Origin: Kiritimatiellia bacterium
GTDB lineage: Bacteria; Verrucomicrobiota; Kiritimatiellia; UBA8416; JBFIFS01
Direction: 5' to 3'
NCBI GenBank assembly: GCA_041602695.1
Contig: JBFIFS010000006.1
Span: 1-52,649 of the forward strand
Length of the DNA: 52,649 bases
Below are positions 8,880-9,014 of this stretch, in pieces. Both the position numbers and the translations under genes were made by a program. How positions within the stretch are numbered: position 1 is the first letter of the stretch; the number at the start of each line of letters is the position of its first letter. The notes under the pieces were generated by a model that was given only the letters and a program-made list of their open reading frames with translations, had not been told where the DNA came from and did not search any database.

Positions 8880-8896
8880 TTGGCACACCTAGTGCT
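8880..8896 (+). promoter_or_regulatory. sigma54 (-24/-12) promoter
   Basis: TTGGCAC-ACCTA-GTGCT: GG (8882-8883) and GC (8894-8895) are exactly 10 nt apart, matching TGGCAC-N5-TTGCW with one mismatch. Lies about 115 bp downstream of a sigma54 activator gene. Confidence 0.75.
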
Positions 8897-8906
8897 AAAT
8901 CTTGAG

Positions 8907-9014
8907 ACGACCCTCGGCTGGACAGGGTAAGGAAGGACCCCTGAAACGACGACGTTAGAGGATCTAGGGAACGACGCCAGTCCAATGAAACCCCGCCTGG
9001 CCGAAGGGTTCTTT
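8907..9014 (+). ncRNA. Candidate sigma54-dependent structured small RNA (CsrB/Rsm-like GGA motifs)
   Basis: Predicted +1 at 8907. The 5' end (8909-8921) pairs with the 3' end (8997-9010). Internal hairpins CAGGG/CCCTG and TAG/CTA present GGA in their loops, with five GGA in about 50 nt. The downstream gene appears to have its own promoter. Confidence 0.55.

Follow-up and report, generated by a model that had tools for sequence, protein, structure and literature searches.

What is encoded in the short gap between a sigma-54 activator gene and a nucleoside phosphorylase gene of a Kiritimatiellia bacterium? The gap belongs to a stretch of 52,649 nucleotides (nt) of contig JBFIFS010000006.1 (assembly GCA_041602695.1), hereafter the window, and an original prediction made from its letters had placed at 8880–9014 a sigma-54-driven small RNA (sRNA) that sequesters CsrA. 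Comparison with relatives gives a partly different answer. The plus strand at 8907–9014 probably encodes a stand-alone regulatory sRNA of ~108 nt, driven by sigma-54 and an activator and folded as a panhandle. By sequence comparison it is one copy of a previously uncatalogued family of predicted sigma-54/activator-driven sRNAs, which is real and new; the proposed partner CsrA does not stand.

Promoter, helices and distribution of the RNA family

A predicted −24/−12 promoter at fixed distance from the RNA is conserved. In the window it reads TTGGCAC-ACCTA-GTGCT (8880–8896), and G(−24) at 8883 with C(−12) at 8895 gives a predicted +1 at 8907; the near-consensus box of the original prediction is thereby confirmed in sequence, with the same predicted start site, and the box is shared by the family. 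Our main sample comprised 64 genomes of the same order as the window genome. A covariance model restricted to the RNA (R1; built from 10 sequences, promoter columns excluded, E up to 0.01) matches 52 places in 36 of the 64, with 1–3 copies per genome. TGGYAY-N5-NYGCH precedes 47 of these matches, lying 21–23 nt from the model start in 44 and 37, 34 and 32 nt in three. The remaining five consist of one TGCG box variant and four boxless matches, three of which are low-scoring and look false. With a second model, R2, a box is found in 51 of 54 sense-strand matches (other-order matches included), 21–25 nt before the model start. Throughout the family the predicted +1 is 2 nt before the first pair of the closing helix, P1, and at the ten loci adjacent to an activator orthologue nothing beyond the box, RNA arms and U-run is conserved.

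The closing stem proposed earlier, formed by GACCCTCGGCTGG (8909–8921) and CTGGCCGAAGGGTT (8997–9010), is present, pairs in the minimum free energy (MFE) fold and covaries. Its GGCYGG/CUGGCC core is nearly invariant and holds a tandem U·G/G·U; because these invariant pairs would be C·A on the opposite strand, we assign the structure to this strand. P1 continues into helix P1b, whose outer three pairs use up to five standard pair types (UA, AU, GC, UG and CG) and whose two loop-side G–C pairs are almost invariant. Between P1b and a four-pair helix, P2, lies a 7 × 7 internal loop, the two strands of which are the best-conserved unpaired part of the RNA (in the 3′ strand, 45 of 50 members keep the G and 47–48 of 50 the three A's). 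The two inner hairpins of the original prediction can be drawn from the sequence but are not the conserved fold, in which CAGGG pairs with the distal CCCCG (P1b) and GGAC (8935–8938) with GTCC (8980–8983; P2).

Covariation was scored over 22 pairs, from P1 (13), P1b (5) and P2 (4). In a plain MAFFT alignment of 20 canonical members, not structure-fitted, 84.8% of cells pair (shuffles, 74.6%), changes on both sides affect 12 of the 22 pairs, and the covariation score is 0.333 against 0.178 (slid controls ≤0.10), a value reached by 0 of 500 shuffles, a count that overstates significance because the members are related to one another. Model alignment of 57 rows gives 85.1% pairing against 73.5%, 17 of the 22 pairs altered on both sides and a covariation score of 0.366 against 0.199, in an alignment that is fitted to the model and includes three antisense self-matches. 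As judged from these alignments, the closing helix and the two inner helices covary.

Four copies are present in the window genome, behind boxes C6:8881 (the window), C3:66421(+), C47:8478(−) and C261:207. Those on contigs C3 and C47 were recognized by listing the sequence 3′ of all 25 sigma-54 boxes of the genome, to which the four boxes belong, and they share the arrangement of the window copy: box, ~10–35 nt, (G/A)CC(C)-NN-GGCYGG, 55–80 nt, CUGGCC-RA-N-GG and U-run. The fourth copy (C261:229–317) was added by the R2 search; nhmmer found none in this genome beyond C6, C47 and C3. Within the genome only the window copy sits behind an activator gene, the C3 copy preceding a pilin-like (N_methyl) gene and the C47 copy an ankyrin/MORN gene.

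DNA BLAST of the window intergenic region against 40 relatives returned no match. The family is too diverged for BLAST, so motif and covariance-model searches were needed. The pattern of a sigma-54 box followed by GGCYGG...CUGGCCRA occurs at 11 places in seven of the 64 order genomes, one of them apparently coding, with none for the reversed-pattern control. The window sRNA itself scores 67.4 bits with R1 and 73 bits with R2 (over 8903–9016). R2 finds the family in 12 of 151 genomes sampled from the class, including six from other orders, and in 151 genomes sampled from the phylum finds no carrier besides the window genome; by these searches the family does not extend beyond this order and several sister orders. 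A metagenome pattern scan yielded 51 stretches, of which six are strong members (box in 6/6), two are weak and lack both box and P1, and 43 do not match.

The family has no counterpart in Rfam 15: no family reaches gathering score anywhere in the window, none of relevance turns up in 8700–9200 when E is relaxed to 10, and a search of seven other members (E ≤ 1) yields a single chance-level ylbH match (E = 0.099) beside one copy. That sub-threshold match lies just 3′ of the C261 copy (L160:323–422) and is probably chance. A literature search (limited paper collection) returned no description of this RNA or of a sigma-54 sRNA in such a lineage. Short-form members are found in one genus (L101, L104, L105 and L111; family f23). 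They have no internal loop, carry GGGA(T/G)ATTCCC directly 5′ of the −24 box, and show a conserved tail and hairpin (GGCG..ACGCCAAG..GGCCGCAAC) after P1.

Table 1 Predicted features of the sRNA locus and its neighbours, in window coordinates
Feature	Position	Strand	Basis or remark
Response-regulator-type sigma-54 enhancer-binding protein, EBP-A	7329–8765	+	REC, AAA+ Sigma54_activat, AAA lid, HTH_8 (Pfam); exact start codon uncertain
Candidate upstream activating site TGGCCGAATAGCGCCA	8755–8770	.	126 nt before box; overlaps EBP-A stop codon
Sigma-54 −24/−12 promoter element TGGCAC-ACCTA-GTGCT	8881–8896	+	Conserved family-wide
Predicted sRNA transcript, ~108 nt	8907–9014	+	Both ends predicted: 5′ ~8907, 3′ after U-run
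P1, 5′ strand of 5′/3′ closing helix, GACCCUCGGCUGG	8909–8921	+	MFE fold; compensatory changes in most P1 pairs
P1b, 5′ strand, ACAGGG	8922–8927	+	Covariation
Internal loop, 5′ strand, UAAGGAA (family consensus U-A-N-G-A-G-A)	8928–8934	+	Column frequencies
P2, 5′ strand, GGAC	8935–8938	+	All four pairs change on both sides in alignment A5
Variable apical domain	8939–8979	+	7–46 nt across family; sequence unconserved
P2, 3′ strand, GUCC	8980–8983	+	Covariation
Internal loop, 3′ strand, AAUGAAA (consensus A-A-U/A-G-A-A-A)	8984–8990	+	Column frequencies
P1b, 3′ strand, CCCCGC	8991–8996	+	Covariation
P1, 3′ strand, CUGGCCGAAGGGUU	8997–9010	+	MFE fold; covariation
U-rich tract UUCUUU directly 3′ of P1	9009–9014	+	Presumed intrinsic termination site
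Weak sigma-70-like box TTGATT-18-TATTAT, outside the RNA, before PNP gene	9049–9078	+	9/12 matches
Purine/uridine nucleoside phosphorylase family gene (PNP_UDP_1; PNP)	9085–9903	+	Likely ATG 9085; start in open reading frame list TTG 9013
PolyA_pol-family gene (cca)	9906–11129		Pfam; downstream of PNP gene

The probable upstream activator and a candidate enhancer

The gene directly 5′ of the sRNA, EBP-A, is probably its activator, judging from synteny and shared motifs. Orthologues (52–62% identity; paralogues 40–44%) occur in 21 of the 64 order genomes, and the RNA lies directly 3′ of the orthologue, on the same strand, in ten of the 21, one of the ten being split over two contig ends. A wider contig search with EBP-A gave, among the matches listed, only generic NtrC-family relatives at ≤42% identity, which we did not use. 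The window genome encodes sigma-54 itself (rpoN; Sigma54_DBD, 207.9 bits, contig C58) and has ~11 strong Sigma54_activat matches. The REC domain of EBP-A suggests a phosphorelay input, and no kinase gene is adjacent.

A palindrome, TGGCCG-N4-CGGCCA, is present at −101 to −181 from the box in all ten activator-adjacent loci (up to 3 of 12 mismatches), at a density of 18 matches in 2,200 nt upstream versus 21 in 34,910 nt of background. At ≤2 mismatches it is found upstream of 8/10 adjacent copies, 5/17 other copies in genomes with an EBP-A orthologue, 1/25 copies in orthologue-less genomes and 2/5 in other orders. We regard it as a candidate enhancer that appears to track with the presence of the activator. 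The window genome contains 25 near-perfect palindromes (≤1 mismatch). Only one of these, that of the C261 copy (C261:62–77, 1 mismatch, 145 nt before the box), is <300 nt from a sigma-54 box, and the window site is not among the 25. Exact shared k-mers of ≥8 nt were absent upstream of the C6, C3 and C47 copies. The fixed-distance box, the orthologues upstream, the palindrome and the presence of rpoN agree with the original proposal of an independent, predicted sigma-54 sRNA behind its probable activator.

Two further observations concern the palindrome. At locus L183 (G028), 135 nt before the box, the symmetric variant TGGTCG-TATA-TGACCA replaces the usual repeat; both half-sites have changed together, as expected if the activator's site co-evolved. 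In the window, 10 nt of the P1 3′ strand (CCTGGCCGAA, 8996–9005) recur unchanged as the left half of the candidate enhancer (8754–8763), an identity that is probably due to chance; other members vary there.

Mode of action and rival readings

The reading that we prefer runs as follows. Sigma-54 RNA polymerase would transcribe the sRNA from the box at 8881–8896, and EBP-A would probably switch it on through an inverted repeat of the TGGCCG-N4-CGGCCA type ~125 nt before that box. The first and last nucleotides would pair in a helix of ~18 base pairs (P1 and P1b), followed by the U-run, and since the closing helix stands directly before the U-run it would double as terminator stem. Enclosed in the panhandle would be the purine-rich internal loop (UANGAGA opposite AAUGAAA), the short P2 and a variable tip. 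We infer that the sRNA is transcribed, is activated by this activator and acts in trans; the internal loop, being the only conserved unpaired part, is taken as its working site. The promoter, the structure, the terminator, the activator synteny and the enhancer motif are, for their part, predictions established by comparison among relatives.

The U-run comes directly after P1 in 30 of 54 members; in 19 more it stands behind a further hairpin or no more than 70 nt away, which makes 49 of 54 in all, and it is absent in five; the C261 copy has a separate terminator hairpin after P1.

Besides the limits of the alignments given above, several points weigh against this reading. The window sequence taken alone does not beat chance, and it is the comparison with relatives that makes the case: the fold energy has z = −1.76, with 11 of 200 shuffles folding equally well, and TGGCAC-N5-NTGCW has 25 matches in the 3.0-Mb genome (87% complete) where ~13 are expected from base composition. 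The candidate site of the window has two mismatches to the palindrome and overlaps the activator's stop codon, and no palindrome lies within 300 nt of the C3 or C47 copy. By our tally, an activator orthologue (≥52% identity) is missing from 19 of the genomes that carry the RNA; no RNA was detected in four genomes that do have an orthologue; and five genomes place PNP immediately after the activator, without an intervening RNA. These points speak against a simple one-to-one link between RNA and activator, and other activators probably drive other copies. The U-run of the window copy is weak (UUCUUU) and was not called by a terminator scan, because the scanner's loop limit of 3–8 nt excludes P1. 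Finally, in 22 of 56 to roughly half of the loci (a rough count of open reading frames, ORFs) a gene on the same strand begins no more than ~150 nt away, so read-through or leader use is possible at some of them.

This last point favours the strongest rival, a cis-acting 5′ leader or attenuator in which P1 and the U-run form a conditional terminator that controls whether transcription from the sigma-54 promoter reaches the next gene and the internal loop senses a ligand or protein. The architecture is aptamer-like (P1 closes it, the helices covary, the internal loop is conserved and the tip varies), and some downstream contexts recur: ankyrin/MORN after the C47-type copy (four genomes), PNP in three group A loci and a Ras-like GTPase gene in group B (four loci cluster, one checked by Pfam). 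However, the genes that follow are of unrelated kinds (PNP, pilin-like, ankyrin/MORN, GTPase, GH65, phosphoesterase, MBL and REC-only). Those after activator-adjacent RNAs comprise PNP three times, a convergent radical SAM gene, DUF1559, GH65, phosphoesterase, REC-only and MBL-fold genes. By the rough ORF count, ~22 of the 56 loci face a convergent gene, the radical SAM case being Pfam-confirmed. The conserved partner is the upstream activator rather than the downstream gene, and the PNP gene does without the RNA in the five genomes noted above. A leader is therefore an improbable account of the family.

The original proposal of a CsrA/RsmA-sequestering sponge, in which loop-exposed GGA and ANGGA motifs titrate CsrA, drew on the window copy, and there the count was correct: five GGA motifs are present (8920, 8931, 8935, 8960 and 8968), three of them ANGGA, and one GGA lies inside the conserved internal loop. 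The box and the stem covariation hold in relatives, but the GGA loops do not. Members average 1.57 GGA (range 0–5, none in 10 of 54) and 0.33 ANGGA (range 0–3), the window copy being the maximum on both scales. The GGA hairpins are outside the conserved fold, which puts most of the window GGAs in helices or helix junctions rather than in hairpin loops. A search for the regulators found rpoN in the window genome but not CsrA (Pfam; genome 87% complete), and CsrA is missing from 55 of the 64 order genomes; of the nine that have it, four carry a credible RNA copy, or five counting one boxless match. A CsrA sponge is accordingly very improbable. The Hfq Pfam model has no match in any of the 64 order genomes, by which we also reject an Hfq-dependent RNA.

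Two last explanations can be dismissed. A small protein-coding gene, with the ATG at 8985 in the 3′ loop strand as start and the GAGAGG strand as a split Shine-Dalgarno sequence, has in its favour a window ORF (8985–9341, 118 amino acids) and the Shine-Dalgarno-like 5′ loop strand, but only 25 of 50 canonical members have an ATG there (others have AAG, ACG, CCA or TAG), the ORF overlaps PNP out of frame and the downstream sequence is unconserved. A sigma-54-like box and a hairpin brought together by chance, without a gene, would fit the frequency of the box and the weak fold z-score, but not the retention of box, helices and U-run in 36 of 64 genomes, where the helices covary and the spacing is fixed.

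How a stand-alone sRNA of this kind would act is a separate matter. We lean, tentatively, towards binding or sequestration of a protein that is neither CsrA nor Hfq: its two ends being held in a helix and both loop strands conserved, the RNA looks more like a protein-binding RNA than a seed-pairing sRNA. Chaperone-independent base pairing with mRNAs is a possible but less favoured mode, and a leader, attenuator or mixed role seems rather unlikely. Duplex energies of the window RNA with the start regions of the activator, PNP and cca genes are at the shuffle mean (z = −0.32, 0.00 and +0.16).

The internal loop was compared with known motifs. A kink-turn (K-turn) consists of a C-stem, a 3-nt bulge and tandem sheared G·A/A·G pairs and has, on the opposite strand, a GA adjoining the C-stem. 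The loop fits this partly (GYCC-AAU-GA... opposite ...GA-GGRC); only 33 of 50 members have G at the 2n position, and the non-canonical side shows irregularities. The K-turn binder family L7Ae was not found in the window genome. Hammerhead-like and tetraloop-receptor readings were rejected as unfit in strand order and junction type.

The conserved 5′ strand GGUA-N-GAGAGG-R-CC (window 8926–8939; L193–L196) matches 12 of 14 positions of the lineage's 23S sarcin-ricin loop, a sequence that occurs once per genome in four relatives, inside large-subunit rRNA. A sarcin-ricin-loop hairpin was rejected as the conserved fold: the loop-closing position varies (A 17, U 17, G 8 and C 7 of 50) and GGRC covaries with the distal GYCC. 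From the 12/14 match and the Shine-Dalgarno-like strand opposite AUGAAA comes the idea, which we consider speculative and unlikely, that the loop is a decoy of a ribosomal or translation-initiation site, titrating a translation factor, a ribosome-associated protein or a repressor that binds ribosome-binding sites. EBP-A, once activated, would then flood the cell with mimic RNA. If true, the family would represent a novel class of protein-sponge RNA, a ribonucleoprotein-type regulator for a lineage that has no Hfq and, for the most part, no CsrA.

Known sigma-54 sRNAs and neighbouring features

Among known designs, the closest is pxr behind nla19, followed by crcZ behind cbrB and then qrr1 with luxO. 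In Myxococcus and relatives, Pxr is encoded by a ~108-nt gene directly 3′ of nla19, a sigma-54-dependent response-regulator gene, with its own predicted sigma-54 promoter; some genera have several paralogues, each with a sigma-54 promoter, and the RNA forms three stem-loops (PMC5568312). Pxr resembles the present family in size, in its intergenic site behind a response regulator, in its sigma-54 promoter and in being multi-copy. It differs in its three stem-loops and in having transcript and phenotype data, where this family is a panhandle with a conserved internal loop and is known from sequence. No Rfam family, Pxr's included if there is one, matched the window locus or the seven other members.

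In Pseudomonadaceae, CrcZ/CrcY are sigma-54/RpoN-dependent sRNAs, encoded directly 3′ of the activator gene cbrB, and CrcZ sequesters Hfq/Crc through A-rich motifs (PMC6292655). The crcZ–pcnB parallel drawn in the original prediction was not confirmed from that source, in the accessible text of which 'pcnB' does not occur (PMC6292655). The parallel with cca also falls on the genomic side: the activator–PNP–cca block exists with or without the RNA, which removes the analogy. Across the order, the conserved block comprises a divergent M48/TPR peptidase, the activator, PNP and the PolyA_pol-family gene (window 5941–11129). CrcZ is alike as a sigma-54 sRNA directly behind its activator, and unlike in its sequestration of Hfq/Crc, Hfq having no match in the 64 order genomes.

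In Vibrio, one qrr copy is encoded beside the activator gene luxO, and the Qrr RNAs are Hfq-dependent base-pairing RNAs. The shared logic is that a REC–AAA+–HTH activator and sigma-54 drive several paralogous sRNAs, one of them beside the activator; the differences are the dependence on Hfq, which this order lacks in 64 of 64 genomes, and the want of any sequence or Rfam similarity. CsrB/RsmZ-type sponges are likewise small structured RNAs, and the window copy has five GGA, whereas the repeated GGA hairpin loops that mark such sponges are unconserved here and csrA is mostly absent. GlmY/GlmZ, which depend on sigma-54 and GlrR, provide a protein-binding decoy for RapZ (PMC3045617 and PMC4152352). 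They are a precedent for a sigma-54 sRNA able to act by protein binding, and differ in structure and lineage.

The RNA thus matches no catalogued family, and the type of circuit, already known elsewhere, appears here in a lineage without Hfq. To our knowledge, almost nothing is known of RNA regulators in uncultured lineages that lack Hfq and mostly lack CsrA. The family would be an independent further case of the design in which a response-regulator bacterial enhancer-binding protein acts through sigma-54 on a multi-copy sRNA, which suggests that this design arose repeatedly in evolution. It is well delimited, and every customary component has been predicted (promoter, enhancer, activator, structure and terminator), which makes it suited to inclusion in Rfam and to direct testing: the activator–promoter pair could be rebuilt in a heterologous host, and the internal loop used as bait for a partner protein or mRNA targets.

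The neighbours named in the original prediction (activator, PNP and a cca-related gene) are assigned as stated by Pfam. PNP is a predicted neighbour of the window sRNA, for which we claim no role as target. The separate sigma-70 promoter that had been proposed for it exists as a box but a weak one, found once where 0.4 is expected in shuffles.

Around other copies, the C47-type sRNA (C47:8294–8478; L129, L130 and L133) lies 40–250 nt before an ankyrin and MORN repeat gene in four genomes, where sigma-54 read-through is possible. Among the group B loci (L121–L124, L126, L127 and L141), six (L122, L123, L124, L126, L127 and L141) have a conserved protein of ~443 amino acids without Pfam match 5′ of the sRNA, and four (L122, L123, L124 and L141) have a conserved ORF 3′ of it, which in L122 is a Ras/Roc-like small GTPase (Pfam). 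Other good sigma-54 boxes in the window genome are at C18:17096(−), C41:14900(+), C1:76210(−) and C4:52975(−); among such boxes, one precedes a pilin-like gene (MKKGFTLVEIM...) and one what reads like the start of DnaK (MSKVLGIDLGTTNS).

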